A stretch of 64,000 nucleotides of DNA from Candidatus Poriferihabitaceae bacterium (GCA_965204165.1 OZ241969.1:888735-952734); one strand, 5' to 3'; counted from the first letter of the stretch, positions 28,048-51,339 are shown. Made by a program: numbers and translations. Notes: generated by a model not told the origin, from the sequence alone.

Positions 28048-28160
28048 TATATCGACCACCTGACTATGTCGGGCACCACAGAGCCAAGCACGTATGTGGT
28101 CCACAATGAAAGGCTTGTTGGAAATGACTTGCCGTGAGTACCCGACATAGTCCTGCCGGC
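28048..28160. repeat. terminal repeat region of the nested second RIT, with internal hairpin
   Basis: GACTATGTCGGGCAC...GTACCCGACATAGTC inverted pair (about 28062-28152). Lies immediately downstream of the minus-strand recombinase stop at 28161. Confidence 0.5.
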
Positions 28161-28372: not shown

Positions 28373-28513
28373 GTAAGCGGCCATTCTGGGGCGTCTTTCC
28401 CCTTGTCCCCGTCCCTGGATACTCTTGACCGGGTTTTCCCGGGCAAGCACCAGGACATCCACATTCAGGGCGAGGTGTAAGGCCGACGGCGAATTGAAGC
28501 CGCGGACGGCAGG

Positions 28514-30497: not shown

Positions 30498-30502
30498 CCC
30501 CG

Positions 30503-30823: not shown

Positions 30824-30910
30824 CGTTTTGAGTCTCCGGTTTCGAAATGGAAGACGCACGATAAGACCCTGACTTCGTCAGTGGAACAACGCCTCAGAAT
30901 GGCCGGTTAC

Positions 30911-31705: not shown

Positions 31706-31876
31706 GGCTGCACCTCCCAGCGGCTTTCCAGGCGGCGCATGGCCTCGCCCATCAGTTCCGGCGAGCCCTCCAGATACCAAGCATAATGCCGACGAATCAG
31801 TAATGCCAAGCGGGGCGTGACAGAGCCTTGATTCAACTGGATTCAGGACCGTTTTCACTCGGCATTACTGTTGACC

Positions 31877-32336: not shown

Positions 32337-32882
32337 TTGCAGAAAATTATGCAGCGGACAAATTCCGGATCGCCTTGTCTTTCGGGGCTTCAGGATCCGT
32401 CCGCTGCATTTTTTGGTCCGCTGCATTATTTTCCATGACGCATTGCACATCTGCCAAAGTCGGTGTCCCCACTCGGCCAGTATTGGCGGCGCCGCCGGTC
32501 CTGCCGACCATCGGCTGGATTGCTGCCGCCGGGTTTTCCACCCGGAAACCTCACTATTCGGGCCAAAACAAACACAACTAACTCATAATCATTCGGTTAT
32601 GGTCCGGTCCCGCCGCCATGGGTTGCGGGAACGGCGCCGCTGAAGTTCCCGTGCCGCGCGGCCCGGGTTCAATAGAATGAAGTGCTGATGCAGATGCCCG
32701 CAACGATGCCTGCAACCTCCACACCGGGAGAAACCGAAATGACGGATCCAATGCCAGAAGAACGCGCCCGGGAACCGGGCTCCATGGCCGCGAGCCACCC
32801 GGCCCTGGCGGTGGTTTCCGCTGTCCCGGAAGACGGGAAGAATGAATCCGCGGGAAGTTTCGGGAGAAACTGCAGGAAAGAG

Positions 32883-32910
32883 TTGACAGCGCGGTCGGGG
32901 CCGATAAAAT
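32883..32910 (+). promoter_or_regulatory. sigma70-like promoter TTGACA-N16-TAAAAT (copy 2)
   Basis: TTGACA at 32883-32888 and TAAAAT at 32905-32910, the same arrangement as 5525-5552. Confidence 0.55.
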
Positions 32911-32915
32911 GCCTT

Positions 32916-33029
32916 GCCAGCGGCCAGCGGCCAGCGGCCAGCGGCCAGCGGCCAGCGGCCAGCGGCCAGCGGCCAGCGGCCAGCGGCCAGCGGCCAGCGG
33001 CCAGCGGCCAGCGGCCAGCGGCCAGCGGC
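32916..33029 (+). repeat. heptanucleotide tandem repeat (GCCAGCG) x16 plus GC
   Basis: Hand count gives perfect units from 32916 through 33027. ATG 33030 follows immediately. Confidence 0.95.
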
Positions 33030-35753
33030 ATGACGTGTGCCCGGGGCCCGGCGCCCGGCTGGCGTATCCCATCCCATCCGGCATCATCGGCCTCGGCAGG
33101 TTCCCCGCGGCCTGACCCCCATCCCGGGCGCGCCCGCGTCCGCCGCTTCCCGCTGATCCTCCCCGTCCTGGCGCTGCTGGCCGGGACGCTCTCCCTGTTC
33201 GCGCCGGTGGAGGCGCAGGCCACTCCGGGCATCCCGGGGAACGTCCAGGTGACCGCGGGGGATGCGGCGCTGACGCTGACCTGGCAGGCGCCGTCGACCT
33301 GGGGCAGCACATCGGCGCGGGGCTACGAGATTGACTGGTACGCCGGCGCCACCGCCCCGGACAGCGATTCGCACGATTGGAAACAGGCGAATTCCGTTGG
33401 TTCTCCGATTTCGGCCAGCGCGACCAGCTATACGTTTACCGGCGCCTATGGCAGCCATACGGTAGCCAACGGCACCAAATACTGGTTGCGGATCAGGGCG
33501 ACGAGCGTCCATCCCACGGATAGCGACGACTACCTGGCCGGACATTACGCGACGCCTGTGAGCGGCACGCCGCAGGCGCAGACCGCGCCCGCGGCGCCCA
33601 CGAGCCTGACCGTCACCGCGGGCGACACCCGGCTGTCCCTGAGCTGGACCGCGCCTTCGGGCACGCTGACGGGCTACGACGTGCACTACACCTCGGCGGC
33701 CGCGACCGGCAGCAATTCGGTCGCGAACGACGCGGCTGTGCAGACCGGCGCTGCGTCGGCGGGCTGGGTGGCGGTCTCGCGCGGCACCGAGACCTCGCCC
33801 CCGACGGCTTCGCAGACGATTTCGTCGCTGACCAACGGCACCGCCTACCGGGTGCGGGTGCGGGCGAAGAACGCCGCCGGCGGCGGCGCCTGGGTGTTCG
33901 GCACGGGTACGCCGAAGACCCCCACCATGGAGTTCGAACTGGACACCTTTCTGGTGGTGGAGAGCGACACGGACCCCGAGGCCGCCAAGGTGCTGATCAG
34001 CCCGGCCCCGGCGGAGCAGACGACGGTGCAGATCCGGGTGCGCTCGTACGGCAACGCGTCGCCGGCGGACTTCACCCTGACCACGACGACGCTCACCTTC
34101 GCCGCGGGCGACACGGAGAAGTCCTTCGGGGTGCTTGCGGCCGCGGACATGTTGACCGAGGGCAACGAGGTCGTCACGCTGGAACTGGTTGCGGTGGCCA
34201 GCGCCCCCTACACGCTGGGGACGCAGGACAGCATAGAGTTCGTCATCGTCGACGACTCTTTCGAGCCGGGCGAGCCGGGTCTGACGTCGCTCACAGCGGT
34301 GGAGTCGGGCGCCAACAAGCCGACGGCGACGACGCTGAGCTTCACGGTGGCATGCGCGACGGCAGACTCCGGCTTTCCGCTCACCGATTACCACGTGCAT
34401 GCCGTGGCCCAGGGCGTCGCGGGGCTGGAGCGCACCTATTTTTTCCCGGAGAGCAAGTGCGGTTCCAACGGTCCGGTGACGCTGACGGGCCTGCCGCTGC
34501 GCCCGACGGCGACGACCTGGCGGGTCCGGGCGCGGGCGCGGGCCATCCGCGGACACAAAGGGGTTTGGTCGAGTACGGTCGACCTGGCGACGCTGGCCGA
34601 CCCCGCGCAGCAGAATGCCGCGGCGCTGACGGCGACGTTTGCGGGCGTGCCTTCGGCGCATACGGGCAACGACCGGAGGTTCAGCTTCACGGTGAACTTC
34701 AACGTTTCGGTGGACGGCGGCCAGGCGCCGACCAGGCGGTCGTTCGAGACCTCCGAAGGCTCGGTCATGCAAGTGGTGCGGGTCTCGGGGAAGAAGTGGA
34801 CGGTGCATGTCCGGCCGCATTCGTGGCGCAAGGTCGGGATAGCGCTCCGGGGCGGTCGGAGCTGCGACGACCCGCACGCGGTGTGCGCGACGGGCGGGCG
34901 GGCGCTGACGACCAGCCCGCAGGCGAGCGTCGGCGGCGCGGCGCGCATCCGGGTGAGCAGCCACTGGGCCAGGGAGGGCACGGAAAAGCCGGTCCGCTTC
35001 ATCGTGAAGCTCAACCGCGCGGTGTCGCACGAAGTGCGGGTGGACTACGCGACGAAGGACGGCGTGGGCATGCTCGGGGGGAACGCGCCGGCGACGGCGG
35101 GGTCGGACTACACCGCGACCTCCGGCACGCTGGTGTTCGAGGAGGGCGAGCGGCGCAAGATGGTCGACGTCGCGGTGCTCGACGACAGCATCGACGAGGG
35201 CTCGGAGTATTTCCTGCTGGCGCTGTCGAACCCGCAGGGCGCCCATCTGCCGCACCGGCAGGTCGAGAGGGTGGGTCTCATCCGGAACGACGACGCGCTG
35301 CAGCGGGCGTGGCTCTCGCGCTTCGGCCGCACGGTGGGAAGCCACGTGACGGACGCGGTGTCCGGCAGGCTCGAGGGCGACCTTGCGCCGGGCACCCACG
35401 CGACGCTTGCGGGCCAGGCGCTGGACCTGTCGGGCGGGGAGGACGGCGATCCGCTGATGGACGTGCTGACGGGCCTTGCCCAGCGTTCCGGTTCACCGGC
35501 GCCGGACGACGGCGATCCGTTCGCGCGCCTCGGCGCCGGGGACCGCTGGAATGATTCCGGCCTTGCGGGAACAGCGGGAACAGCGGGAACAGCAGGAAAC
35601 ACGGGAAAAATCTCGATGACGGGCCGTGAGGTCCTGCTCGGGAGTTCGTTCCACACGGCGGGCCGGATGGACGGCTCGGGCCCCGGCCTCGCGGCCTGGG
35701 GCCGGGTGGCGCATGGCGGCTTCGACGGCGAGCGGGTGTTAGGACTCACATAA
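33030..35753 (+). pseudogene. autotransporter-like surface protein 2, truncated in the beta-domain by transposon insertion
   Basis: MTCARGPAPG...RRFPLILPVLALLAGTLSLFAPVEAQA leader, with FN3 and Calx-like domains. Sequence 35288-35736 is nearly identical to 9378-9833 of protein 1. Homology then stops at ...HGGFDGE and the frame ends RVLGLT* inside foreign DNA. Confidence 0.85.
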
Positions 35754-35922: not shown

Positions 35923-36771
35923 TCAGAAGACGGTGGCCCGGAGCAGGTCGTTCCAGTCCTTGACGCCCTCGGGGCGGATTCGCACGACGCGTGGGTCCGT
36001 CCGGAGGGATTCGGCGCACCGGTCCCCGGTGGGGTCGGCGTCGTACCCGCACAGGATGGTGCGGACGCGGGGGTCATGGAGCCACGGGGGCAGTCTGGCG
36101 GTGGCCCCGGCGGTGGACAGGATGCAGTCGGGTTTGCGGGACAGGGGCAGGAGCCATGCGGACAGGGCGTCGATGGCGGACTCGACGATGAGGACGGTTC
36201 CGCCGACGGGTTCCCGGTTGTCGGGCCGCGTCGGGCAGGTGATCCGGAAGGCGCCGCGTTTCCGGCTGGAGCCCCTGGCGAGGCCCCGGAAGACGGTTTT
36301 TCCGGATCGGCTGTCGAACCCCACGAGTTCGGCGCCCACGGTGCCGCCGTCGGTGCCGCGCATGACGAACACGGCGTTCCCGCGGCGGTCGGCGGAGACG
36401 ATGCCCTCCTGGCGGCAGCGCTCGACGAGGTTTTCGTCGATGGACCGATGATCCTGCAGGTACTTCCGCACGGCGGCCCAGCGATCCCCGTCGGCGGGTT
36501 CCACGGTTCCCGGGGGCGCGATCCGCTCGAGGACGTCGATGGCACGGGGGAACTGGCACCGGCAGGCGTGCATGACCAGGTCGATGGCGCCGCCGCCGCC
36601 CTGCTGGAGGAGGTGGTCGTAGAACCGGGTTCCGTCGATGCCGATGACGCTGCCGGTCTTCTTCCAGCGGGTCCGGTCGCGGGGATCCCGGCGGTAGCCG
36701 ACGGCGGCGGCGACGGTGTCGAGCGGGAGGTCGCGCAGGCGGCGCAGCCGCTCCGGATGGTAGCGGTTCAT
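35923..36771 (-). CDS. Toprim domain protein (primase-like)
   Basis: MNRYHPERLRRLRDLPLDTVAAAVGY.... Toprim Glu in LIVESAIDALS and DxD in CGYDADPTGD. The ATG overlaps the upstream stop. Confidence 0.7.
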   Translation of the reverse strand: MNRYHPERLRRLRDLPLDTVAAAVGYRRDPRDRTRWKKTGSVIGIDGTRFYDHLLQQGGGGAIDLVMHACRCQFPRAIDVLERIAPPGTVEPADGDRWAAVRKYLQDHRSIDENLVERCRQEGIVSADRRGNAVFVMRGTDGGTVGAELVGFDSRSGKTVFRGLARGSSRKRGAFRITCPTRPDNREPVGGTVLIVESAIDALSAWLLPLSRKPDCILSTAGATARLPPWLHDPRVRTILCGYDADPTGDRCAESLRTDPRVVRIRPEGVKDWNDLLRATVF

Positions 36772-37568
36772 GTCCCGGTGTCGTCGACGGCCTTCTGGAC
36801 GTCGCTGGTGTCCACCAGGTCGCGCTTGCCGATGGCGGCGGCGCACAGGGCGAGGTGGGCGACGCGGTCGATGCGCCGGGGGACGCCGTTGGTGGCCTGT
36901 GCGATGGCCTCGACGGCCTCGTCCCGGAACAGGGGGACGGCGGCGCCGGCGAGCTTCAGGCGGTGCTCGAGGTATCCGGTGACCTCCTCGCGTTCGAGGC
37001 CGTCGAGATGGCAGCGCACGACGACGCGCTGGCTGAGGGACTCGTAGACGGCCATGGCGAGGCGCTTTCGCAGCTCGGTGTGGCCGGCGAGGAGGAGGCA
37101 CAGGCGGTTGTCGGAGTCCATGCGGTAGTTGGTGAGCAGGCGGAGTTCCTCGAGCAGGCCGGCGGCGAGGAGATGGGCCTCGTCGATGACGAGGAAGGGC
37201 ATCTGGCGGCCGTCCTTGACCTGGCGGGAGACTTCCTCGCGGATGGCGTGGAAGGCCTGGGCGCGCTGCTTCGTCAGGGGCAGCCCGAAGGCCTGCAGGA
37301 TGGCGGTGTAGAGGTCGACGACGCTGCCGGTGGTCAGGGAGATGTACCGGTGGCGGTAGAGGCCGGGATGGAGGTTGCCTGCGATCCGGCGGCAGACGGT
37401 GGACTTGCCGCAGCCGGGCTCGCCGGTGAGCAGGCCGATGCCGCGCAGTTCCAGGAGGTGGCGGATCCGTGCGTCGGCCTCCTCCTGCCCCCTGGTCGGG
37501 AACAGTTCGTCGATCCCGATGGAGGGCTCGAAGGGGTAGCGGGTGAGTGCGAAGTGGGTCCTGTACAT
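36768..37568 (-). CDS. AAA+ ATPase (ExeA/TniB-like transposition partner)
   Basis: Walker A GEPGCGKS and Walker B FLVIDEAHLL. Sits directly after the DDE transposase. Confidence 0.85.
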   Translation of the reverse strand: MYRTHFALTRYPFEPSIGIDELFPTRGQEEADARIRHLLELRGIGLLTGEPGCGKSTVCRRIAGNLHPGLYRHRYISLTTGSVVDLYTAILQAFGLPLTKQRAQAFHAIREEVSRQVKDGRQMPFLVIDEAHLLAAGLLEELRLLTNYRMDSDNRLCLLLAGHTELRKRLAMAVYESLSQRVVVRCHLDGLEREEVTGYLEHRLKLAGAAVPLFRDEAVEAIAQATNGVPRRIDRVAHLALCAAAIGKRDLVDTSDVQKAVDDTGT

Positions 37569-37569
37569 G

Positions 37570-38892
37570 TCATTCCTCCGTGTCGGATGATTCGGGATGA
37601 TCGGGACCGGAACCGGCGTTCCGGAAGGACAGGCCGTCCGACGCGGGGCGGCGCCGGATGCGGGCGTTGGCGTGGATGTCGACCAGCGTGGCGATGCCGG
37701 CGCCCTTGCCCTGGTGGACCACGGCCAGGGGCCGGGACGGCGGGGCCGCGGGGTCGTACCGCAGGATCACGTACTCCCCGATCAGCCAGGCATCGACCTC
37801 GTAGACGCGGGCCTCGAAGTGCACGGTGCGGTCCTTCCTGACCTTGCGCCGCTTCTCGAGCAGGAACAGGTCGGCGAGGTCCATGCCGGGGTCCACGAGG
37901 CGAACCCCGGAGGCGCACAGGGCCCACTGCTCCAGCGGGGTCCGGCCGCCCAGGCCCTGGTGGGGATTGCGGTGGTACTCCCCCTCGATCCAGGCCTGCA
38001 GCTTGCCGTTGAGGGCATCGAGGCTCCGGAGGTCCTCCGGGACCAGCCCGGAGAGGAACTGCTGGCGAACCGTCCTGAGCCATCTCTCCATCTTTCCCTT
38101 CCCCGCCGGCTGGAAGGGCTTGGCGTGGATCAGTGCGGTCCCCAGCCGCGCGCAGACGATCTCCAGGGCCTTGGAGCGGTAATTGGCCCCGTTGTCGCAA
38201 TAGAGCCTGTCCGGGATGCAACGCCTCTCGATGGCCAGGCGGAACACCGGCAGGAAGGCCGCCACGCTCTCGGAGAAGGCGAAGGCCGCATGGGGGATCA
38301 CCCGGGTGGCGTCGTCCAGGAACGCGATCAGGTAGACCTTGCGGGCATGGCCCCGGCGGTCCCGGACCCGGGGGCCGTGGAGCACGTCCGACTGCCACAG
38401 CTCCCCCGCCCACTCGTAGGCGAAGCGCCGACGGTCGACGCCCCCGGGACCGTTCCCCGGCGGCGGGTCCATCAGGCCCAGCGACTTCAGCATCCGGCCC
38501 ACCGTGGACCGCGGCAGCCGGACCGACCGCGGCACCAGCCCCCGGTCATGGGCCTGCGCGATCAGCCTGCGCACGCTCAGGTGCGGCTCGGCCCGCTTCA
38601 GCCCCGCCAGCGCCTCCACCGTCTCCGGGGACAGGCGGCGCTGCCCGTGGCGATCGGCCCGCGCCTTCGGAACCAGGGCGTCGAACCCGTCCCTGCGGTA
38701 GTCCTGCAGCCAGCCCCGGATGGTCTCCGACGCCACCCGGGTGCGATCCGATCCCGGGATGTCCCACGTCCGCTCCGACAGCTCCCGGGCCTTCGGCGCC
38801 ACCTTGCCATGGGGCTCCGGCAACAGGGTCGCTATGACGCGGTACCGGAACAGCGCGATTTCGTTGGGTTCGGGGGGATTCTTGCGGCTCAT
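37570..38892 (-). CDS. DDE (rve) transposase with N-terminal HTH
   Basis: MSRKNPPEPNEIALFRYRVIATLL.... Catalytic D in WQSDVLHG, D in YCDNGANYRS, E in GKGKMERW. GGAGG SD. Confidence 0.9.
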   Translation of the reverse strand: MSRKNPPEPNEIALFRYRVIATLLPEPHGKVAPKARELSERTWDIPGSDRTRVASETIRGWLQDYRRDGFDALVPKARADRHGQRRLSPETVEALAGLKRAEPHLSVRRLIAQAHDRGLVPRSVRLPRSTVGRMLKSLGLMDPPPGNGPGGVDRRRFAYEWAGELWQSDVLHGPRVRDRRGHARKVYLIAFLDDATRVIPHAAFAFSESVAAFLPVFRLAIERRCIPDRLYCDNGANYRSKALEIVCARLGTALIHAKPFQPAGKGKMERWLRTVRQQFLSGLVPEDLRSLDALNGKLQAWIEGEYHRNPHQGLGGRTPLEQWALCASGVRLVDPGMDLADLFLLEKRRKVRKDRTVHFEARVYEVDAWLIGEYVILRYDPAAPPSRPLAVVHQGKGAGIATLVDIHANARIRRRPASDGLSFRNAGSGPDHPESSDTEE

Positions 38893-39566
38893 GGCGGTCC
38901 TCCATGGGGTCCGGATGGTTGTGGGACCGATTCTGATCCCCCAGCCGACCCCGAACCATGGCCGTTTCCTGTTGGCGGCCCCCTCGATGGATTCCAGCGC
39001 CGCGGCGGCAGACGGAATCCAACAGGAAACGTGATCGAGCCCAGCTGCCCGTGACAGTGCGCCCGAAGGTCCCGGAGCGCCGTCTGCGAATCCAGCCGGG
39101 CGCGCAGGTCCGCCAGCGTCGGCTTCATGCCGAAGAACCGCGGATGAAGGCCGGGCAGCATCCGCAGCAGGTCCTCCATCCACCCGCACCGCCGGCGCAC
39201 CAGCCGCCATGGAATCACCGGATCCACATGGGAGTCAAAAAAGAAACGGACCGCCGCCATCTTCCCGGACGCCTCGGCCACCACCGCGATCTCCTCGATC
39301 GCCTCCAGGGTCCCGCGCACCCCGCACGCCAGACAGTCGGGCAGCGCGCTGAACGTGGTGTGGCAGAACGCGCAGTACCACCGCCTCACCCGCATCCCCG
39401 CCGGCTCCACCCGTTCGTAGGTCCCGTGCCCGCACATCCCGCATCCCGCCCCCAGGCCCAGAAGGCACGGCGGGGGGCTTGCCTCCCGCCAGCCCTCCCG
39501 GATAACATACTCCTCAGCGGTCAGTCCCGTTTTATGTCGAAGTTGAATGGGCCCTCCACCGCTCAC
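38889..39566 (-). CDS. hypothetical Cys-rich (zinc-ribbon) protein, first gene of the transposon operon
   Basis: GTG start. CGMCGHG...RRWYCAFCHTTFSALPDCLA. The stop overlaps the transposase ATG (ATGA). Confidence 0.5.
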   Translation of the reverse strand: MSGGGPIQLRHKTGLTAEEYVIREGWREASPPPCLLGLGAGCGMCGHGTYERVEPAGMRVRRWYCAFCHTTFSALPDCLACGVRGTLEAIEEIAVVAEASGKMAAVRFFFDSHVDPVIPWRLVRRRCGWMEDLLRMLPGLHPRFFGMKPTLADLRARLDSQTALRDLRAHCHGQLGSITFPVGFRLPPRRWNPSRGPPTGNGHGSGSAGGSESVPQPSGPHGGPP

Positions 39567-40486: not shown

Positions 40487-40491
40487 CCCAG

Positions 40492-41313: not shown

Positions 41314-41406
41314 GGCGGCGTAACATATCGAAAGAAATAATCGTTGACAATAGTAATATTTAGTCAATACACTACATCCAACGTCAATCATGCGAATGCG
41401 CCTCCC
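41314..41406. promoter_or_regulatory. divergent promoter/operator region
   Basis: AT-rich 93 bp between divergent genes. Palindrome TTGAC-N14-GTCAA at 41344-41367. TTGACA (41344-41349) with TACACT 18 nt downstream. Confidence 0.5.
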
Positions 41407-42240
41407 ATGAACGGAAACGACAGCGGAAAGCACCCCGTGGCAGTCACGGCAACGGACGGGAAACGGAATCCCGGCATGCCCGGAAAGGCCGGCGGCGGCG
41501 ATGGAAAGCCGGACGACCCGGTGCGGGCGCGGATTCCGGCCCTGCTCTGGAAGAACGGGCTCAGCATGAAGAAGGCCTCCACGGCGATGGGGCGCCACGG
41601 CAGCTTCCTGCACCAGTTCATCTCGAAGGGGACGCCCAAGGTGCTCGCCTACCGGGACGCGGAGAGGCTGGCCGCACTCCTCGGCTGCCAGCCGACGGAC
41701 CTGCACCATGACGAGCTTCCCCCGCGGCGAAAGCCGGTCTCGGCGCAGACGGTGGCCGGCGCCCGTGCGCCGGGCGGAACGAAGGCGGGGATGCCCGAAT
41801 ACCCGGATAACCCGGAAAACCTGGTCGGAGTCCCCGAGATGGCCATCGAGGCCTCGGCTGGCCCCGGGGCCTTCATCGACCATTACCTGCCGGAGACGGC
41901 CCGGTGGTTCCTGCCGGACAGCATGGTTCGCCACGAGGGGAACGCCGACCCGGCGTCCCTGCGCATCCTTCGCGTGCGGGGCGAGTCCATGGAACCGGAG
42001 CTGTCGGACGGGGACCGCCTGGTGGTGGAAATCTCCCGCACCGTGCCGGTGACCGGCGAGCTCTGCGTCCTGTGGGACGGCAACGGCCTAGTGGTCAAGC
42101 GGATCGAGCATCTGCCGGGCGCGGACGGGCCCCCGGCCGTGAGGCTCAAGTCCGCGAATCCCGACTACGCCGACTACGAATGCCTGGCGCAGGATCTCCA
42201 TGTCTCCGGACGCGTGCTCTGGAGCATCCGGAAAATGTGA
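41407..42240 (+). CDS. CI/LexA-like repressor (HTH plus S24 peptidase domain)
   Basis: C-terminal RVRGESMEPELSDGDRLVV...LVVKRI carries the Ser/Lys dyad motifs of S24 peptidases. The N-terminal part LSMKKASTAMGRHGSFLHQFI is HTH-like. Confidence 0.85.
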   Translation: MNGNDSGKHPVAVTATDGKRNPGMPGKAGGGDGKPDDPVRARIPALLWKNGLSMKKASTAMGRHGSFLHQFISKGTPKVLAYRDAERLAALLGCQPTDLHHDELPPRRKPVSAQTVAGARAPGGTKAGMPEYPDNPENLVGVPEMAIEASAGPGAFIDHYLPETARWFLPDSMVRHEGNADPASLRILRVRGESMEPELSDGDRLVVEISRTVPVTGELCVLWDGNGLVVKRIEHLPGADGPPAVRLKSANPDYADYECLAQDLHVSGRVLWSIRKM

Positions 42241-42927
42241 GCGCGGACCCGGCGGCTGGTTGCAGCTGGGTCCACGTCAATATTGCCGCCCCCGGAGGCC
42301 CGCCTGAACGGCCCGGCGGGGCTTGCGGGAACCTCGTGCCGGTTCAGCGGTTATCCAGGCTGCTGAAGTGCGTTGGGGTCGCCTTCACACCCCGTTCGTG
42401 GCTTTCCTGGAGTATTCCTTATTTTTCAATAAGATAAATTTGTCATTGTCTGAGGGCGCAATCAAAATGAAACCGACTTGCTTCAATTCTGCGACATCGG
42501 CAGCGTATTGGCGTCGCAATCGTTCCCAACTTGATGCCGAAATTATTAAAACTGGATTTTCAACTGAAAATTGATATCAATCCCGCTGAATTGATTGACT
42601 CGTCACTGTCATATCTTCATGAAAACCTGTAGCAACTATCGCATCAAACACTCCAGTTCAATCTAGAAGAACTACCCCTGACACACCGATTGACTGCCAA
42701 GAAAATCTTCCACCAACACCCCCCACGGGTATGTTGCTCAAACTGGCTCTTTCCATGATGTGAATCTGGCATGGCCCCTGAACAGTCTTGAACAAAGTAG
42801 GTGAATTGTCACAAGGCATGAATTGAATTTCACCGATGACAGTTATTGTGCGTACGGTGGAGGAAACCACCACCAGGTTCACTGGAGTTACGCTAAAATT
42901 ACCTATTCTGGTGAATAGCCTGTGATC

Positions 42928-44115
42928 ATGACATCCTCAGTTGTTTACTCCATCTCTGCTGATATGAGCCGGCTCTCGAAAGCCTTAAACGCATCGCCTG
43001 TCGTTGCCGACATGGCCCGGCTGTCAAAAACCTTGAACGCATCACCTTTCTTTGACGACCTGAGCCGGGCCTCGAAAGCCCTATATTCATCGTCTGCTGT
43101 TGCTAACATGGCCCGGTTGTCAAAAACCTTGAACACATCGCCTTTCTTTGACGACCTGAGCCGGGCCTCAAGAGCCCTATATTCATCGTCTGTTGTTGCT
43201 GACATGGCCCGGTTGTCAAAAGCCTTAGATACATCACCTCTCTTTGACGGCCTGAACCGGGCCTCGAAAGCCCTATACGCATCGTCTGTTGTTGCTGACA
43301 TGACCCGGTTGTCAAAAACCTTGAGCACATCGCCTTTCACCGCTGAATTAAATCGAGTCTCGCGCGCCACCACCGCCTTAGAACAAGTCTCCAAGCTTGA
43401 ATTTCCTACGTATGGCTTGATTGGTGAAACTACTCAGCACTTTGATGCGAACATCAGAACCAGAGCACACCGCCCTGCCATCCATTCACGATCGGTCAAA
43501 ACGATTAATGAAACACCAGATTATGGAGACAATCCTGAGTCAAATCATTTTGTACAGAATGACCGTGGCACCACTGGTCTCTTGATCACACCTGATTCAG
43601 GTAATTCCCTGTCAATCCAGGTCGGTTTCTCCGTTTCTCTTGGTTCAATACCAATTCCCCAGGCTATCGAGGCCATAAACCCTGAAGTCACTTCTGATCC
43701 TCAATACTGGCGGATTTTGGTCACACTGGAACAACATCTCCGTTCTTTTGTACAACGAAGTCTGAAAAAATCAGTCGGTAACAATTGGATCCGACAAAGA
43801 GTACCGGAAGATGTACGAAAAAATTGGGCAACTCGGCAAAATGAAGATCGTGTTTTAAGTAAACCGGTTTACGAACTTATTCAGTATGCTGATTTCATGG
43901 ACTTGGAAAAAATAATAAACCGAAATGACAACTGGCAAGAAGTTTTCAAACATGTCTTTCGAAACCGCGATGACATTAGAGTAACTTTTGCCCGTCTCCA
44001 TCCCATACGAAATGCCATTGCCCATGGCCGACCCTTAGATTCTGACGACACTCTATCGTTGATCAATGAAGCCGCCCGGATATTTCATTCATTGTGTTTG
44101 AAAGAATTGCATTGA
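42928..44115 (+). CDS. repeat-containing protein with C-terminal Swt1-like HEPN domain
   Basis: The N-terminus has about 9 tandem 16-17 aa units (D[ML][AS]R[LA]SK[AT]L[NY].S...). The C-terminus WRILVTLEQHLRSFV...NNWIRQRVP...FMDLEKII...ARLHPIRNAIAHGRPL contains an R-x4-H HEPN motif. Low-GC codon usage. Confidence 0.75.
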   Translation: MTSSVVYSISADMSRLSKALNASPVVADMARLSKTLNASPFFDDLSRASKALYSSSAVANMARLSKTLNTSPFFDDLSRASRALYSSSVVADMARLSKALDTSPLFDGLNRASKALYASSVVADMTRLSKTLSTSPFTAELNRVSRATTALEQVSKLEFPTYGLIGETTQHFDANIRTRAHRPAIHSRSVKTINETPDYGDNPESNHFVQNDRGTTGLLITPDSGNSLSIQVGFSVSLGSIPIPQAIEAINPEVTSDPQYWRILVTLEQHLRSFVQRSLKKSVGNNWIRQRVPEDVRKNWATRQNEDRVLSKPVYELIQYADFMDLEKIINRNDNWQEVFKHVFRNRDDIRVTFARLHPIRNAIAHGRPLDSDDTLSLINEAARIFHSLCLKELH

Positions 44116-44476
44116 CGCATTGTTTCTACCGGCATCTGTCTACTACAGTTGAAATAACTGACATGGACGTGCCAGCTCCAGGCATTTTATCCACCGACAC
44201 TTCGCACTAACGCTAAGTCCAGACTCTAAATTCTGAAACAGAGTAGTTCATCGCGTGGCTACCTCTACAAAATGTGCGAAAGAAAATTGACGTATTCCCC
44301 CGCACGTCGTTTCCAGAATTTTTTTGATTGGCTCTTCCCCAAATCGAGTGGGTAGATTCTTCGTTGACGGGTTCGGAATGGAGGTTCAATTCGCTGAGGA
44401 GGAAGTAGATCGCGAATTTCAATGTAAATTTGCTGTCACCTCCAAGCTCTGAAAGTAAATCGCCCAGCTGCTTAAG

Positions 44477-44689
44477 ATGTCCGATAACAGTCCTGTGACA
44501 CCGCGAATGCTGTTGGAGTGGCTCGTCGAAAACGCCATGGATTTCGTCACCCGCTCCATCAATGAATTCGATGATGACCCCAAGTATTCCGTCATTCATT
44601 TCTATTCGGCCGTGGAACTCTTTCTGAAGGCCCGTCTCCTGGCAGAGCATTGGTCGTTGGTTGTATCAACTGGGAAAACTCCTGATTAA
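44477..44689 (+). pseudogene. HEPN/zinc-ribbon protein, N-terminal part (interrupted by IS110-type element)
   Basis: MSDNSPVTPRMLLEWLVENAMDFVTRSINEFDDDPKYSVIHFYSAVELFLKARLLAEHWSLVVS, then the frame runs into high-GC foreign DNA and stops. Confidence 0.65.
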
Positions 44690-46489
44690 TGGTATGACCC
44701 GCCTCACCCTCGGGGGGTAGCAAACTGCAACCAACTCCGATCGACGATGAGCCATACAGCAACACCACCGGCATCCCGCACACGCCTGTCAGGCGGGACC
44801 GCGGAACGGAATGCAGCCGGATCGCGGAGGCGCGCGATGCCGGGACAGCGCAGCCCGTCGGGTTGCCGGTCTGCAAGCAAAGCGGTGATCAGGGGGTATC
44901 CTTCCAGGGGCGGTTTTCTCTTCACCCCGAAACCCGCTACAGTGAGCGCTCCGTTGCGTTGTGGCGCCGGGGGACGGGTGATCCGGAAGAGAAGAGAGGC
45001 CATGGTCCATCCCTGTCGGATACGGCTTCTGGGAGCCCCAATGATCTGTACATCATTCACACACTCGAGGAATGAACCATGACCAAGACGAAACATACCA
45101 CGAAACCCCGATCCGTTCCCGCCTTCATTGGCATCGACCTGGCGAAGAACTCGGTCCATGTCCACGGCGTCGACGCATCGGGCCGCAGCTGCGTTGACCG
45201 GAAGCTGAAGCCGGCGAAGCTGAAGGAATACCTGGCCAACCTGGCACCCTGCGTGGTGGGCATGGAGGCCTGCGGCCGGGCCCACCAGTGGGGCCGGGAC
45301 GTTCTGGCCATGGGGCATGAGGCGAAGCTCATGGCCCCTCAGTTCGTCAAGCCTTACGTCAAGACCAACAAGAACGACCGGGCGGACGCCGCGGCGATCT
45401 GCGAGGCGGTCCAGCGCCCGAACATGCGCTTCGTGGGGATCAAGAGCGCGGACCGTCAGGCGCAGCAGGCCATCCACCGGGTCCGGTCCCGGGCGGTTGG
45501 CAACCGGACGGCCCACGCGAACGCGGTCCGCGGCCTGCTGGCCGAATTCGGCATCGAGATTCCCCTGGGCATCTGGAAGGTCCGGCCGGCGGTGGCGGAG
45601 ATCCTGGGGAACGGCGGTACTTCTGACATCACCCTGCCTCCCCGGTTTCTGGACGTGCTGGCCGAGCTGTACGACGAGTTGGTGCACATGGACGGGCGGG
45701 TGGAGAAATACAACCGGATGATCGAGGAGATTGCCCAGTCGGACGAGCAGGCACAACTGCTGATGACGATCCCCGGAGTGGGTCCGATGACGGCCACTGC
45801 GCTGCTGTCCACCATGGGCGACCCAGGTATGTTCCGGAACGGTCGGGAATGCGCGGCCTGGCTCGGCCTGGTGCCGGGGCAGCGTTCGACCGGCGGCAAG
45901 GACCGGCTGCTGGGGATATCGAAACGGGGCGACCGGTATCTGCGCTGCCTGGTGGTCCATGGGGCGCGGACGATGGTCAATCAGCTTTCCCGGAAGGAGA
46001 AGACGGATCGTCGAAGCCAGTGGCTGAAGGGTTTGCTGGAGCGGCGTCACCGGAACGTGGCGACGGTGGCGCTGGCGAACCGGATGGTGCGGACCGCGTG
46101 GGCGGTGCTGACGTCCGGCATGCCGTACGAAGAGAATCATGTGCCTGCCTGAGGGCAGGCCAGTGGAGGATCGGGAACCTGGTTCCGGATTCCAAATATC
46201 AACCTGACATTAGAGTAGAACAGTTACCCACCAGGGTTGCTTGAGAGCAATTGATCGTGATGGCAGAAAAGGCAAATCGCCGGCGTGAGAACCTGTGTTT
46301 TCCAAAGACCCGATCCATAGAGCACCTGACGGTGTACTGTGTAGAGGTCGCTAGATTGATAAGGACACGCCGGCGCGCATTCCATCAGGGCCAGGGGCAT
46401 AGAGATCCCCATCGAAAGGTCGGATATATGGCAGCAGCCCGTCACTTCCGGATCGACGATTGTTCTTGCATACCGGGGCGGGTCATATA
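44672..46489 (+). mobile_element. IS110-family element inserted in the HEPN gene (boundaries approximate)
   Basis: Abrupt GC rise near 44695. Transposase at 45079-46152. TGGGAAAA is present at 44671-44678 and 46490-46497, flanking the insert. About 400 nt of noncoding DNA lies 5' of the gene and about 340 nt lies 3'. Confidence 0.7.
45079..46152 (+). CDS. IS110 family transposase
   Basis: 357 aa. FIGIDLAKNSVHVHG...GMEACGRAHQWGR N-terminal DEDD domain. C-terminal TIPGVGPMTATALLSTMGDPGMFRNGRECAAWLGLVPGQRSTGGKDRLLGISKRGDRYLR. Confidence 0.95.
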   Translation: MTKTKHTTKPRSVPAFIGIDLAKNSVHVHGVDASGRSCVDRKLKPAKLKEYLANLAPCVVGMEACGRAHQWGRDVLAMGHEAKLMAPQFVKPYVKTNKNDRADAAAICEAVQRPNMRFVGIKSADRQAQQAIHRVRSRAVGNRTAHANAVRGLLAEFGIEIPLGIWKVRPAVAEILGNGGTSDITLPPRFLDVLAELYDELVHMDGRVEKYNRMIEEIAQSDEQAQLLMTIPGVGPMTATALLSTMGDPGMFRNGRECAAWLGLVPGQRSTGGKDRLLGISKRGDRYLRCLVVHGARTMVNQLSRKEKTDRRSQWLKGLLERRHRNVATVALANRMVRTAWAVLTSGMPYEENHVPA

Positions 46490-47389
46490 TGGGAAAAGTT
46501 TGTGGAAGGGGATTTTATTTCTGTAAACCTGGAACAGGCCGCCGACAGGCTGGATAAGACAGTTCGAAGTCCCCTGCAGAAAGAAGCACTCAAAGCCTTT
46601 CAAAAACTCGCAAGCCATCGCAACAAGACGGTCCATTTCTTCCATGAGGGTCTCTCGAACGAAGCGAGTCAAGAAATGCGGAAAGACCTTGCAAGAGAAC
46701 GACTCAATGCCTGGTATTTCTTGCACAGAATACTGGTAAACCAGTGGACTGAATTGTTTTCTTACTGGTCGGGTCAGCTTGAAGATCTAAACGACAGGAT
46801 GCTTGGCCTTAGTGACTACCTTAGGATCATATTTGACCAATTGAAGCCTGAAATTGATCAGGCAAGAGAAAACGGGAAGATATGGGAAAAGTGTCCATCC
46901 TGCACATTTCCTGCTCTTGGCTGCGAACCCGAATTGGGAGTGCCCGAGTGGACGATATGTTCCGTTTGCCGTTTCGCTGCAAGATACCTGATGATCAATT
47001 GCCCCGATTGCCATAGCGACTGCGGCAAGCCAGTTTTTTTTATGGAGGAAGGATGGGGCCAGTGTACTTGCTGTGGACGTGATTTCGATCCCGAACAACT
47101 GGCAGAGGCTTTGATCGATCCGGTCGCCGCGCGTGAGGCAAAAAAAGGCGGCGACAACCTACTTGCCAATTGTGATTTTTGTGACGCAAGCCATACGGTT
47201 GTTCACGTTGATCAAATCGAAGGGCAGTACTTCTGCACATCCTGCTTCAATTATTCTGAAGCAATCGAAAATTGTCTAAGGTGCGGCGAGCCCAACACCG
47301 GCGATATGACAAACAGTGCCTGGGCAGGGTGTAATGTCTGTGGTATCGGACTTAGTATTTATCAATCAAATCAAGGCGGCAATCCGTAA
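46460..47389 (+). pseudogene. HEPN/zinc-ribbon protein, C-terminal part
   Basis: WEKFVEGDFISVNLEQAADRL...LASHRNKTVHFFH (R-x4-H), followed by at least four CxxC pairs (CPSC, CSVC, CPDC, CTCC, CDFC, CTSC, CLRC, CNVC). Confidence 0.65.
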
Positions 47390-47796
47390 TGAAGTGAGAT
47401 TCTTTCTCGTCAAGATTTCTCACCCGCAATAGGCTCTCACTACTTTCCCAGCATCAGGGTATCTTCGCGATAATTTCACCTTTCTGTTTATCGCCTGACG
47501 GTTTCTTACTTCCCATTCCGCAACCGGTATCCGGTCTGTAGTCCCCTGATCTCCGAGGGCAGGCAACCAGAACTTGCTCCATCAGTGAGGCACTGCTGAA
47601 GACGGTCACTGTTCGGCACTGCGCCTTATCTGAACTTGCGGCGACGCCCCACAAATTCACCAGTCATGCAGTAACGCCGGTGACATGGTTCCACTCAGAA
47701 TCCTGTCCCTAATCAACAGGTGTGAAGGGTTTGGTCAGGCTTGGGCAAAGGCCCGGTCCCTGAGAGAGGACAGGGCTCCCGTCCACTTACCGGAGC

Positions 47797-48822
47797 ATGC
47801 CCATGACCGAACCCATTTCGGCCGACTACACCCTGCGGCCGTCCGCACTCGCCGGAATCCTCGCCCTGCTGATCGAGGCCCGCCAACCGGCTATGGTCTG
47901 GGGTCCGCCCGGGGCGGCCAAGTCACAAATCGCCCAACAGGTCGCAAGGGACACAGGACGCCACTACGTCGACGTGCGCGCCCTCCTCCTCGATCCCGTG
48001 GACCTCCGCGGCGTCCCCTGGCGCGATTCGTCCGACCGCACCCGCTGGGCGCCGCCCGCGTTCCTGCCGCCCACGGACGATGCCGGCCAGTGGCTCATCA
48101 ACCTGGAGGAACTGCCCTCCGCTGTCCCCATGGTCCAGGCGGCCCTGTACCAGCTCGTCCTCGACCGTGCGGTCGGCGAGTATCGATTGCCCGAGGGCGC
48201 CGCCGTCATCGCCTGCGGCAACCGCGAGACCGACCGCGGGGTCGTCCACCGCATGCCGACGCCCCTCGCCTCCCGTTTCGTTCATCTGGAGATCCGGGTG
48301 GATGCGGCGGACTGGACCGCCTGGGGCGCCGCCAACGGAATCTCCCCGGAAGTTCTCTTTTTCATTCAGCTCAGGCCTGAACTGCTGCACCAGTTCGATC
48401 CGCAGTCGAAGGAGAAGGCGTTCCCCTGCCCACGCACCTGGGAATTCGTCTCGAACATCATGCGGAACCGCAGCGGCCTCGATCCTGAAGCTGAAAAATC
48501 ACTGTTCCGGGGCACCGTCGGCGAGGCCGCCGCCATCGAGTTCGCCGCCTTCCTCAACGTCTGGCGAGAGTTGCCCCATCCTCGGGCGGTCATCAACGAC
48601 CCGGAAAACGCCGACATCCCCGACAACCAGAGCGCGCTCATCGCATTGTGCGGCAGCCTCTACCGGCTCGCCAGCGACGTCAACCTGGACGCCATCGTCG
48701 CCTACGCCACGCGCCTGCGTCGCGAGGTCGGCGAATTCCTGGTCGGCTCCTGCATCCGCCGGGACCCGGGCCTTCAGCGCACCCCGGCCTTCATCCGCTG
48801 GGCCGCCACGAAGACAGCCTGA
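47797..48822 (+). CDS. MoxR/AAA_5-type ATPase
   Basis: Walker A GPPGAAKS, Walker B-like WLINLEEL, sensor region ACGNRETDRG. Confidence 0.85.
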   Translation: MPMTEPISADYTLRPSALAGILALLIEARQPAMVWGPPGAAKSQIAQQVARDTGRHYVDVRALLLDPVDLRGVPWRDSSDRTRWAPPAFLPPTDDAGQWLINLEELPSAVPMVQAALYQLVLDRAVGEYRLPEGAAVIACGNRETDRGVVHRMPTPLASRFVHLEIRVDAADWTAWGAANGISPEVLFFIQLRPELLHQFDPQSKEKAFPCPRTWEFVSNIMRNRSGLDPEAEKSLFRGTVGEAAAIEFAAFLNVWRELPHPRAVINDPENADIPDNQSALIALCGSLYRLASDVNLDAIVAYATRLRREVGEFLVGSCIRRDPGLQRTPAFIRWAATKTA

Positions 48823-48883: not shown

Positions 48884-49783
48884 ATGGAACTCGAAAAAGA
48901 CGCGATGCTGGTCAGCCTGCGGATCAGCGCATGGTCCGGCCGGCTCTACGACCGCCAGGCGAGCGACCATGTCGCCGTCCACCACGACGCCGCCACCAAT
49001 GCAGGGCGGTACAACAAGCGCCTGCTCCCCAAGTCCGCCTTCGCCGTGCTGAACGCGGTCATGGGCAAGGCGAGGGCATTGCACTACGCCAACACGCTGG
49101 CCTGGGACGACCAGGGATACCGGCTGCTCACCGTGTCCAACTACGACCGCTACACGGAACTCATGGACGAGATGCAGGAGAAGGTGGTCAAGGAAAGGAC
49201 CCGGTTCATCCGGGACTACGACGACAACGTCGAGCAGGCCAGGACCGACCTCGGAAAGCTCTTCCGCATGGAGGACTATCCCTCGAAGGATTCGCTCCAG
49301 GGCCGGTTCGCCATCCGCTACCGCGTCGTCCCGGTGCCCCATGCCGACCATTTCATGGCAAGGCTCGCCTCGGACGATCTTGTTAAAGTCAGAAAAGACA
49401 TGGAGAGCCAGATCGGAGAGCGGATCCACGACGCCGTGGGCGACCTGTACCGACGGCTGGGAGAGGCCGTGGAGCGTGTCTCGAAGCGGCTCGGGAACGA
49501 CGAGAACGGCAAGCCATTGGTGTTCCGGAACTCCATGATCGAGAACATCCGGGAACTGGTCGATATCGTTCCCCGCCTCAACATCTTCGGCAACCATGAA
49601 CTGGCGCAGCTGTGTGAGCAGGTGAAGGACCGGATCGCGAGCGTGGACCCCGATACCCTGCGTCCCTCGCAGTCCTACGACCCGGTGGTCCGCAGGCAGG
49701 TCAAGCGGGACGCCGACGCACTGATGGAACAGTTCGCGGGGTATTTTCAGGTTCCCGCCGAACCTGCGCGGGAGGCAGCGTGA
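48884..49783 (+). CDS. DUF3150-like protein
   Basis: LVSLRISAWSGRLYDRQAS...LFRMEDYPSKDSLQGRFAIRYRVVPVPHADHF matches my recollection of the DUF3150 pattern. Typical partner of MoxR and VWA genes on conjugative elements. Confidence 0.65.
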   Translation: MELEKDAMLVSLRISAWSGRLYDRQASDHVAVHHDAATNAGRYNKRLLPKSAFAVLNAVMGKARALHYANTLAWDDQGYRLLTVSNYDRYTELMDEMQEKVVKERTRFIRDYDDNVEQARTDLGKLFRMEDYPSKDSLQGRFAIRYRVVPVPHADHFMARLASDDLVKVRKDMESQIGERIHDAVGDLYRRLGEAVERVSKRLGNDENGKPLVFRNSMIENIRELVDIVPRLNIFGNHELAQLCEQVKDRIASVDPDTLRPSQSYDPVVRRQVKRDADALMEQFAGYFQVPAEPAREAA

Positions 49784-51339
49784 GCAACCGCGCCGCCGCG
49801 GAGTCCGCCAGGCGCGTCAGCGGCTGCGTAGGGGAACTGCTCCGTACGCAACCCTTCTTCGGCAGCCTGGCCCTCAGGCTGCCGCTTGTTCCCGACTCCA
49901 CGAGAAAGACGCTTGGATGCGATGGACAGAACATCCGGTATTCGCCGCAGTGGATTGCGGAGACCGATGCCCACCTGGTGGCGACCGCCATCGCCAGGGT
50001 GGTTCTCGCCTGTGCCCTGAAACATCACACACGGCGCGATGAACGGGATCTGGAGCGCTGGCAGCGCGCCTCCCAGCTCGTGACCCACGGAATGCTGCGG
50101 GACGCGGGGTTCACCCTGCCGGACGATGCCGAGGCGTGGGAGGAGATGAGCGTGGAAGAGGCCTACAACCGGTTGCCGGATCCCGAACCGGAAGAAGGCG
50201 GTTCCGGCCAGTCCCCGCCGGATACGGGCATGGAAATGCCTGAATCAGCCGGGGGCGGTGACGATTCCGATGAAACGGAAGATCCGGAATCGGATCCATC
50301 CGGCAATTCCGATCAATCGGATGATTCGGACCAATCAGGCCAGTCAGATAACCCGGATGATTCCGGCGGGCAGGACGATTCCGGGGATCAGAATAACTCC
50401 GGTGACCCGGACGATGCCAACGATCGGGACGATTCCGGAAATTCGAATGATTCCGGCGATTCAGGAAACACGGATAACCATGATCAGCAGGATGATACTG
50501 ACCAGCAAGACGATACTGGCCCGCAGAATGACCCGAACCCGGATGGTTCAGATGACAACGCCGAACCTGAAGCCCAAAAAAGCCACGACCCCGCCGGCAC
50601 TGGCGAAGTCATGGACTCTTTTCGGCCTCAGGATCAAACGTCAGACCAGCCGGGAAGTTCGGCCACGGACGAGACCCTGAAGAACGAGGAAGAGAAGAAA
50701 TGGGACGAGGCCATGCACCAGGCGCTCAGCATCGCCAGTGCCGAGGGCAAGGCGCCGGGGCAGGTCAGCGAGACCATCCGGGACGCCCATGCGGGCACGC
50801 TGGACTGGAAGACCCTGCTCCGCCAGTACATGGTCGACGCGGTCAAGCGGGACTACAGTTGGAGCGTGCCCAACCGGCGCTTCATCGACGGCGGGCTCTA
50901 CCTGCCCTCGATCCGGACGGACGGGATCGAAAGCATCGCCGTCATCATCGACACCTCCGCTTCGATCTGGTGCCGGCCGCAGATCCTCGAGATGTTCTGG
51001 TCCGAGGTGCGCCAGGTGGTGCTGGATATCCAGCCCGAGGAGTTGATCGTGCTGCAGGTGGACGAAATCCTCCGGGAGGCCACCGAATATTCCATGGACA
51101 ACCTGCCTGACGAGATTGAACTCAAGGGCCGGAGGGGAACCGATTTCCGGCCGGGGTTCGCCTGGCTGGAGGAACAGGGGAAACAGCCGGGGGTCTGCCT
51201 CTACCTCACCGACATGGAGTGCACCTCTTATCCCGATACAGAACCCGATTTTTCCGTGGCGTGGATCAACTGGTCGAAACCGCCAGCCGACTGGCACCGG
51301 GAGCCCTGGGGTGAGCGGATCGACATGGCTGGAATCTGA
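49780..51339 (+). CDS. VWA-domain protein with DUF2201-like N domain and a long acidic low-complexity linker
   Basis: N-terminal LLRTQPFFGSLALRLPLVPD...CDGQNIRYSPQW. A D/S/G/N/Q-rich linker of about 110 aa. C-terminal IAVIIDTSASI (a VWA/MIDAS-like DxSxS variant). GTGA overlap with the upstream gene. Confidence 0.75.
   Translation: MSNRAAAESARRVSGCVGELLRTQPFFGSLALRLPLVPDSTRKTLGCDGQNIRYSPQWIAETDAHLVATAIARVVLACALKHHTRRDERDLERWQRASQLVTHGMLRDAGFTLPDDAEAWEEMSVEEAYNRLPDPEPEEGGSGQSPPDTGMEMPESAGGGDDSDETEDPESDPSGNSDQSDDSDQSGQSDNPDDSGGQDDSGDQNNSGDPDDANDRDDSGNSNDSGDSGNTDNHDQQDDTDQQDDTGPQNDPNPDGSDDNAEPEAQKSHDPAGTGEVMDSFRPQDQTSDQPGSSATDETLKNEEEKKWDEAMHQALSIASAEGKAPGQVSETIRDAHAGTLDWKTLLRQYMVDAVKRDYSWSVPNRRFIDGGLYLPSIRTDGIESIAVIIDTSASIWCRPQILEMFWSEVRQVVLDIQPEELIVLQVDEILREATEYSMDNLPDEIELKGRRGTDFRPGFAWLEEQGKQPGVCLYLTDMECTSYPDTEPDFSVAWINWSKPPADWHREPWGERIDMAGI

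Follow-up and report, generated by a model that had tools for sequence, protein, structure and literature searches.

A low-GC island with two HEPN genes in a Candidatus Poriferihabitaceae genome is probably a cargo slot of independent modules, not a two-gene system

We analysed a stretch of 64,000 nucleotides (nt) from Candidatus Poriferihabitaceae bacterium (GCA_965204165.1 OZ241969.1:888735-952734), referred to here as the window, which contains an island of low guanine-plus-cytosine content (GC) at about 42520-47742. The island lies between a gene for an S24-peptidase repressor and a gene for a MoxR-like ATPase, and it encodes two HEPN-motif proteins on the same strand. Gene A (42922..44115, plus strand, 397 amino acids, aa) encodes a solo Swt1-family HEPN protein with N-terminal tandem repeats; gene B is a HEC-08 homologue interrupted by an insertion sequence (IS). 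An earlier reading, made from the sequence alone, had proposed the pair as a candidate two-gene defence or abortive-infection cassette for which no described system was known. Our results point elsewhere: the island is probably (a probability of roughly 0.75) a cargo slot with independent modules rather than a new two-gene system. Gene B matches a named system that acts as a single gene, and, as judged from sequence comparisons, A and B are otherwise adjacent only in the metagenome contigs L001 and L002, which are close relatives of the window element.

Gene B almost certainly belongs to the HEC-08 family. Its first 70 codons (44477..44686, plus strand) and its last 299 codons (46490..47389, plus strand) each match the PADLOC HEC-08 profile, the former at 1.4e-21 over profile positions 14-71 and the latter at 6.5e-61 over positions 74-350 of 358; both fragments also match the PADLOC DUF3644 model (6e-24 and 2e-24). 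When 44477-44686 is joined to 46490-47389, the rebuilt gene encodes 369 aa without any other frameshift or stop, and the product is 95% identical to the intact protein P0001. The sequence-only reading had put gene B at about 380 aa, which is somewhat too long for the IS-free gene, while the SHRNKTVH motif and the CxxC zinc ribbons that it described are both present. The R114-x4-H119 motif is encoded at 46619-46636, within the C-terminal fragment that also carries the zinc-ribbon array. No variation at R114, N115, H119 or 16 cysteines was seen among 24 gene B homologues, which come from many phyla.

HEC-08 provides anti-phage activity in E. coli as a single gene, and this activity is lost in a His128 mutant of its Rx4-6H motif (Payne et al. 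2024, bioRxiv 10.1101/2024.01.29.577857). We found that gene B and the tested E. coli protein, WP_001313577.1, can be aligned over their full lengths (31% identity, E 5e-44), with H113-R114-N115-K116-T117-V118-H119 of gene B placed opposite H122-R123-N124-R125-V126-V127-H128, so that the catalytic histidine is conserved (H119 = H128). The two proteins share their architecture and length, an N-terminal DUF3644-type HEPN domain with HRNxxVH followed by a zinc-ribbon array, and the profile match extends over the full length of gene B. HEC-08 corresponds to the EC042_2821 group, which overlaps DUF3644 and had earlier been described as fused to zinc ribbons and other domains and as occurring in restriction-modification operons (Anantharaman et al. 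2013, PMC3710099). Gene B differs from the tested HEC-08 in that it is only 31% identical to it, has been inactivated by an IS, and is cargo of a mobile element, whereas HEC-08 is embedded in an Hma or type I restriction-modification operon. Of 5426 complete E. coli genomes, 342 encode WP_001313577.1, among them that of Nissle 1917. An AlphaFold2 model of gene B (predicted local distance difference test score, pLDDT, 82; predicted template modelling score 0.76) consists of a helical N-terminal domain and a C-terminal region rich in beta-hairpins (201-326), and HEPN proteins head its list of PDB neighbours, at scores below formal significance. A sequence search of the PDB with gene B returned only weak zinc-ribbon matches, and no NCBIfam model matches either gene A or gene B.

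We then compared the island with related loci. L001 and L002, both from one metagenome study, carry the genes for the repressor, A, B, the MoxR-like ATPase, DUF3150 and VWA in the same order as the window. A third relative, L003, shares the backbone of the element (96% identity over 40190-42519 to the left of the island and 90% over 47743-48119 to its right) and has gene B at the same site with 81-86% DNA identity, but it lacks gene A. In place of gene A, L003 has an unrelated 160-aa gene on the other strand, and 3' of its gene B lie a full-length PDC-S31 homologue (5e-76) and then a DEDDh exonuclease gene. The homology breakpoints fall between A and B, in the intergenic region at 44116..44476: homology to L003 begins at 44415 and homology to L002 is broken at 44324-44455, which places the left boundary of the B module at about 44415-44456.

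To survey the neighbourhood of gene B more broadly, we screened 80 genome loci from many phyla, with flanks of up to 10 kb (less at contig ends), for open reading frames (ORFs) resembling gene A, using tblastn (E<=1) and a profile of 17 gene A homologues (E<=10 for the 80 genome loci and E<=1 for other loci). No A-like ORF was found near gene B in the 80 genome loci, in four IMG/VR viral loci, in the E. coli locus or beside the gene B relatives of 64% and 74% identity, and a screen that also took in 68 metagenome loci and others found an A-like gene near B nowhere outside L001 and L002. From the side of gene A, six further loci (L084-L089, representing four distinct contexts) contain no gene B, and the annotation of four plasmid loci with gene A relatives lists no HEC-08-like gene. 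In total, A is missing from 88 other B loci, and B or an annotated HEC-08-like gene is missing from 10 other A loci. Genes of about 315 aa that lie 3' of the gene A homologues in L086 and L088 were considered as counterparts of gene B and rejected, as they are unrelated to gene B and to each other.

These data bear directly on the possibility that the two genes function together as a single HEPN system, for example one in which a repeat-sensor HEPN protein partners or heterodimerises with a zinc-ribbon HEPN protein. The two genes lie 361 bp apart on the same strand, both encode a conserved R-x4-H motif, the pair is retained in L001 and L002, and the intergenic DNA is as conserved as the coding DNA when the window is compared with L001 (90.9% over 43343-44687). 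However, all occurrences of the pair are in near relatives of a single element, and shared descent therefore explains it. Moreover, the same site in L003 keeps B without A, the 88 other B loci and the six scanned A loci each lack the partner, the annotated plasmid loci list no HEC-08-like gene, recombination breakpoints lie between the genes at 44415-44456, and HEC-08 works alone. Because A and B do not co-occur more widely, we consider the two-gene system largely refuted and joint function very improbable. Similarly, the neighbours of gene B differ among L003, L163, L164, L165 and the 80 genome loci and HEC-08 is reported as a single-gene system, from which we conclude that gene B has no obligatory partner. 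The sequence-only reading had named three observations that would count against a cassette. Two of these were found, namely a match to an already named system and the lack of wider co-occurrence; the third, a loss of R-x4-H in homologues, was not, since the motif is conserved in 17 A and 24 B homologues, in keeping with the two same-strand HEPN-motif proteins that had been recognized.

In one recurring arrangement, a DUF6602 gene lies just 3' of gene B relatives, on the opposite strand (L164 6517-7401 and L165 8680-9564, beside the HEC-08 homologues 64% and 74% identical to gene B). It could be a recurrent neighbour or could reflect the same island in both loci.

If A and B are not partners, their adjacency would be accounted for by the site in which they lie. 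In 19 metagenome loci that encode a MoxR-like protein 70-83% identical to that of the window, the 6 kb upstream of this gene contain 95 ORFs, which fall into 93 clusters. Defence genes are among them: a complete cyclic-oligonucleotide-based antiphage signalling (CBASS) set in L104 (cyclase 1.1e-135, E1-E2 2.7e-199, JAB 1.6e-62), the DrmD helicase of DISARM in L101 (4.5e-301), a type II restriction enzyme in L131, and PDC-M30/M41 A and B together with PDC-M70A in L110, with 1-3 kb between each of them and the MoxR-like gene. In four close relatives, the window and L001-L003, the slot is seen to lie inside the element. We assign the slot to 42520..47742 (no strand), as the backbone match to L003 (96% identity) extends to 42519 and starts again at 47743, with other cargo between these points in L003. 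The region 5' of the MoxR-like gene is thus hypervariable, and the island is therefore best read as a defence-cargo hotspot. The defence-related setting supposed by the sequence-only reading is supported in this way, both by the HEC-08 match and by the defence genes that relatives hold in the slot.

Variable cargo loci of this kind are known as defence hotspots in P2/P4-like prophages, satellites and integrative and conjugative elements (ICEs) of the SXT family. As in those elements, the slot occupies a fixed site between conserved backbone genes and its defence cargo differs from relative to relative. The backbone here is a different one, consisting of genes for an S24 repressor, a MoxR-like ATPase, DUF3150, VWA, ParB and a Strawberry-notch helicase, and we know of no previous description of a hotspot between an S24 repressor gene and a MoxR-like gene.

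The composition of the island agrees with that claimed by the sequence-only reading. In a GC profile, GC is 0.42-0.52 at 42250-44750 and 46250-47750, compared with 0.62-0.72 in the flanks, and the inserted IS block, which has a host-like GC of 0.59-0.67, splits the low-GC region into these two parts. Third-position GC is 0.45 in gene A and 0.50 in the C-terminal fragment of gene B, against 0.75-0.87 in the adjacent genes. By these measures, the island looks horizontally acquired.

The other module of the slot, gene A, is most likely a self-contained HEPN RNase whose repeat array would restrain the nuclease or sense a trigger. Gene A encodes 397 aa from a GTG start, one more than the 396 aa first described; if the ATG at 42928 is taken as the start, as in the public record P0121 from the same genome, the length is 395 aa. 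The repeat-containing N-terminus and the Swt1-like HEPN C-terminus were both recognized correctly. The HEPN domain spans aa 264-389 (43711..44088, plus strand) and matches Pfam HEPN_Swt1 with E 6.4e-15 and 55.9 bits, above the gathering cut-off of 27.5. It contains the motif IRNAIAHG, with R363-x4-H368 encoded at 44008-44025, and R363, A365, H368, R370 and P371 of LHPIRNAIAHGRP are invariant in the 17 gene A homologues. In an AlphaFold2 model built with these homologues, residues 260-390 form a confident helical domain (pLDDT 87-96), preceded by low-confidence short helices (5-157) and a disordered linker (158-258). Active bacterial HEPN domains of the Swt1/Abi2 type have been described in fusions to AAA+ (DUF499), helicases, restriction endonucleases or PIN domains (Anantharaman et al. 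2013, PMC3710099). The C-terminal domain of gene A resembles these in matching HEPN_Swt1 with its catalytic R-x4-H intact, and gene A differs from them in its tandem-repeat helical N-terminus and disordered linker. A sequence search of the PDB with gene A gave no match.

The repeat array of gene A (42965..43338, plus strand; residues 15-139) was resolved by Tandem Repeats Finder into 3.9 copies of a 96-nt (32-aa) unit with 86% matches and a 48-nt (16-aa) sub-period, and it is hypervariable among orthologues. Compared with its L001 orthologue, gene A is 92% identical over residues 226-397, 55% over the linker and 25% over the repeat region, which also contains a 32-residue insertion or deletion. 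In two diverged relatives the C-terminal domain is 85-92% identical, compared with about 70-80% for flanking noncoding DNA, which indicates purifying selection on the domain. As a separate observation, ten separate stretches of P0141, a protein of 2840 aa without a Pfam domain, match the repeat region of gene A (aa 13-140); the repeat motif therefore exists outside HEPN proteins too.

We asked how widespread this architecture is by a full HMMER search of 1.84 billion cluster representatives (50% identity clusters). The search returned 1792 representatives at E<=1e-3, of which 921 reach E<=1e-10, and nearly all of the 1792 matches align to residues 225-397 alone. The top 149 relatives have a median length of 397 aa, carry the HEPN module at the extreme C-terminus in 98% of cases and keep P-[IVLM]-R-x4-H in 132 cases. 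Among 137 N-termini of these top relatives, 39% contain tandem repeats that beat every shuffled control, and the periods across the family are often 16, 24, 32 or 48 residues although the sequences are unrelated. From these sequence patterns we would tentatively propose, while regarding it as rather doubtful, that gene A typifies a widespread family of self-contained HEPN RNases, comprising 1792 or more clusters at 50% identity, in which N-terminal repeats serve as a specificity or sensor module that varies in sequence and period even among close orthologues.

What gene A would act against is less clear from its surroundings, and the chance that it is specifically anti-phage seems to us about even. 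Homologues of gene A adjoin a Prok-E2/ThiF operon, HNH nucleases together with a VWA-PP2C-kinase set, or genes of the nSTAND3 and Schlafen-like kinds, and one context is an element rich in transposons. Relatives also occur on 20 alphaproteobacterial plasmids, where they bear the NCBI name 'Swt1 family HEPN domain-containing protein' and adjoin serine or tyrosine recombinases, Tn3 transposase or dcm genes, and in none of 50,697 phage records; nor were any found in IMG/VR viral contigs. This distribution would suit an addiction, stabilisation or competition toxin, that is, an HEPN RNase that makes loss of the element costly or hinders rival elements rather than phages, the more so as relatives often lie beside site-specific recombinases or dcm methyltransferases or in or near transposons. 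Yet no antitoxin-like partner was seen beside gene A here or in the examined loci, several relatives lie among defence genes (nSTAND3, Schlafen-like, Prok-E2/ThiF and HNH), and the HEPN part resembles a PADLOC defence candidate. The context is, moreover, non-discriminating, since defence genes also ride plasmids and transposons. We therefore regard a role as such a toxin as unlikely.

Three of the plasmid loci (L167 3038-5616, L168 3092-5670 and L166 2667-4594) hold gene A relatives together with recombinase modules. A tyrosine recombinase gene lies directly 3' of plasmid gene A relatives, with a 5-bp gap or a 4-bp overlap and once near a Tn3 transposase gene; in one other plasmid locus a serine recombinase gene lies 5' of the gene A relative, and a dcm methyltransferase gene is adjacent in two loci. 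A link between the gene A HEPN family and recombinase modules is possible.

The candidate that gene A resembles is PDC-M34, a two-gene candidate of PADLOC (FAM_01148>>FAM_01657). The sole PADLOC match of gene A is to its component PDC-M34B (1.7e-18), in the HEPN part alone (aa 263-376); the match covers profile positions 62-175 of 192, and PDC-M34B is much shorter than gene A. The other ORFs of at least 50 aa in the island (42323..42574, 42658..42882 and 44213..44650) have no Pfam or PADLOC match, and an MNT gene such as that of HEPN-MNT toxin-antitoxin pairs was thus not found among them, as the sequence-only reading had stated for MNT and antitoxin-like genes.

Several observations weigh against reading the island as a slot of independent modules. 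In three elements A and B have been kept together, side by side and in one orientation, and a facultative interaction between them may exist. The 19 distant loci lack the S24 repressor side, and part of their variability may mark the boundary of the element instead of an internal slot. For gene B, the identity to the tested HEC-08 is low, and the best PDB neighbours of its model, the HEPN proteins 2hsb and 1ufb, followed at lower rank by AbiV and Csm6, all fall below formal significance. The gene A model found nothing in the PDB with Foldseek at E<=0.001, the C-terminal domain of yeast Swt1 (4pqz) being eighth with E 2.7; a literature search returned no experimental work on its architecture, which leaves gene A without a tested relative; and in PADLOC it matches one half of a two-gene candidate, the other half of which, PDC-M34A, was not found among the ORFs of the island.

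Gene B is broken by an IS110-family element, as had been recognized from the sequence. Comparison with L001 and L002, in which gene B is intact, delimits an IS110-family (IS1111-like) IS of 1803 bp at 44687..46489 (plus strand), with a gene for an RNA-guided transposase of 357 aa at 45079..46152 (plus strand). The transposase contains the Pfam domains DEDD_Tnp_IS110 and Transposase_20 and matches NCBIfam NF033542 at equivalog level (3e-105, 352 bits against a cut-off of 140). In L001 and L002, the uninterrupted site reads ACTCC(C/T)GA(T/C) up to the junction and TGGGAAAAG beyond it, with one ambiguous T at the junction; there is no target duplication beyond this 1 nt. The first bases of the IS, TAA, end the gene B frame after codon 70. 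A perfect 11-bp subterminal inverted repeat, TATGACCCGCC, lies at 44693-44703 and 46477-46487, which leaves 6 nt outside it at the left end of the IS and 2 nt at the right. Short subterminal inverted repeats are a hallmark of the IS1111 subgroup in the ISfinder classification, and together with the DEDD and Transposase_20 domains and the lack of a target duplication they liken the insertion to IS110/IS1111 elements, from most of which it differs in being longer. The octamer TGGGAAAA, which flanks the IS at 44671-44678 and 46490-46497, was considered as a target duplication and rejected: both copies are part of intact gene B, where they lie 10 nt apart in L001 and L002 in different reading-frame phases.

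The nearest plasmid relatives of the IS are IS110-family elements of Skermanella and other alphaproteobacteria, with 66-69% DNA identity. A check of the IS ends for a bridge RNA gave only 7-nt matches to the target, near chance expectation, and no Rfam match. Because IS110-family elements choose their targets by sequence, the insertion says nothing about selection on gene B or its cost, and the sequence-only reading of it as consistent with a costly or toxic function is not supported; because the remainder of gene B is undamaged, the event was recent. A fragment of a second, diverged IS110-family transposase gene lies inverted at 45-134 of the window and is 74% identical to 45210-45299.

The DNA between the repressor gene and gene A (42241..42921, no strand) had been described as about 680 bp of unexplained noncoding DNA, up to 42927. 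Its small ORFs have no family match, an Rfam scan of this 680-bp DNA and of the IS ends gave nothing at E<=1, and promoter-like or terminator-like sites are no commoner in it than in shuffled sequence, but part of it is now accounted for: 42241-42519 (about 280 bp) is element backbone, 96% identical in L003. Homology breaks in blastn alignments further show that 42393-42813 (420 bp) is missing in L002 and is therefore dispensable there. L001 retains most of 42241-42921 with 69-78% identity, below that of the coding regions. The stretch resembles leader or junction DNA of the A module under loose constraint, and if the gene A of L002 uses a promoter of its own, this would have to sit within the 108 bp that directly precede the start codon. 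The module boundaries were also searched for inverted repeats, and none were found.

These features also allow a further alternative to be weighed, in which the island is decaying foreign DNA without current function, with gene B dead and gene A a leftover open ORF. The disruption of gene B, a codon composition far from that of the host, the lack of a promoter signal above chance and the dispensability of 420 bp of the upstream region in L002 would all be consistent with decay. Gene A, however, is intact over 397 codons and keeps every invariant residue of its family; its C-terminal domain, better conserved than noncoding DNA (85-92% versus about 70-80% identity), indicates purifying selection; and gene B, apart from the IS, has no frameshift or stop and remains 95% identical to P0001. 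We find decay of the whole island scarcely credible.

The genes that flank the slot indicate the kind of element in which it lies. On the left, the S24-peptidase repressor gene (CI/LexA-like; 41344..42240, plus strand; Pfam Peptidase_S24 7.6e-15) is conserved in L001 and L003 and is preceded by a divergent HTH_17 gene. On the right, the MoxR/CobS-like AAA ATPase gene (47797..48822, plus strand) is followed by genes for DUF3150, a DUF2201 metallopeptidase/VWA protein, a ParB-like protein, a protein with a weak, sub-threshold HATPase_c match and a Strawberry-notch-type helicase of 1684 aa. The AAA-DUF3150-VWA-ParB module is also found on a plasmid of Rhodovastum (Acetobacteraceae), and the backbone is therefore plasmid- or ICE-like and not phage-like; the element family is apparently alphaproteobacterial. 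A prophage context was considered and rejected, as the backbone module is found on plasmids and the window contains no phage structural genes; the MoxR-like ATPase alone has distant relatives in jumbo phages. The DUF2201/VWA gene (49780..51339) carries in its middle, at 50344-50532, an acidic low-complexity insert rich in Asp, Ser and Asn, with 18-nt and 54-nt repeats.

Reading the island as a slot of independent modules, we propose the following course of events. A slot between the S24 repressor gene and the MoxR-like/DUF3150/VWA/ParB module of an integrated plasmid- or ICE-like element would have been filled by lateral transfer with two separately acquired single-gene HEPN modules, which would be neighbours through a common hotspot and not through joint function. 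The gene B product would be an RNase that infection switches on and that then cleaves RNA, with an abortive-infection-type outcome, its zinc-ribbon array sensing or binding the trigger; in this genome the gene is presumably non-functional, with an immediate stop where the IS follows codon 70. Gene A would be an autonomous HEPN RNase that its variable repeat array regulates or targets, with a role in defence or in maintenance of the mobile element.

Elsewhere in the window, several features stand apart from the island. Inverted copies of about 600 bp at its two ends (1127-1817 and 63338-63997, 80-89% complementary) are two diverged genes for single-stranded DNA-binding (SSB) proteins in opposite orientation (Pfam SSB 1e-21 and 4e-23), and may represent two related mobile elements or an inverted duplication. 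Mobile-element genes pile up at 25123-31858 and 36768-39210. The first region contains at least two consecutive tyrosine recombinase genes (25123..26349 and 27274..28137) with an overlapping ORF between them, an IS66 transposase gene (28514..30103, minus strand) and a further tyrosine recombinase gene (30878..31858, minus strand); the second contains genes for a Mu/Tn552-like rve transposase (37570..39210, minus strand) and an AAA_22/TniB-like ATPase (36768..37568, minus strand). Three very large ORFs (5556-10802, 19685-23605 and 32682-35753) contain long direct repeats, both internal and mutual, and the last of them (32682..35753) encodes Calx-beta and fibronectin type III domains; the three look like paralogous giant surface or adhesin-like proteins.

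Taken together, our results remove the pairing of one HEPN protein with another as a false lead: these are two cargo genes in one slot, and their pairing is circumstantial. The remaining interest lies in the gene A family, in a hotspot that to our knowledge is new to the literature and in the defence gene broken by an IS. Defence genes can be harvested from the slot that the S24 repressor gene and the MoxR-like gene enclose. Gene B provides a natural case of a defence gene silenced by an IS110-family element, whose precise excision would restore it. Gene A represents a sizeable group of Swt1-type HEPN proteins with hypervariable tandem-repeat N-termini; if these repeats do act as sensors, the family would constitute a new single-gene system for abortive infection or mobile-element protection, with a recognition principle based on repeats.

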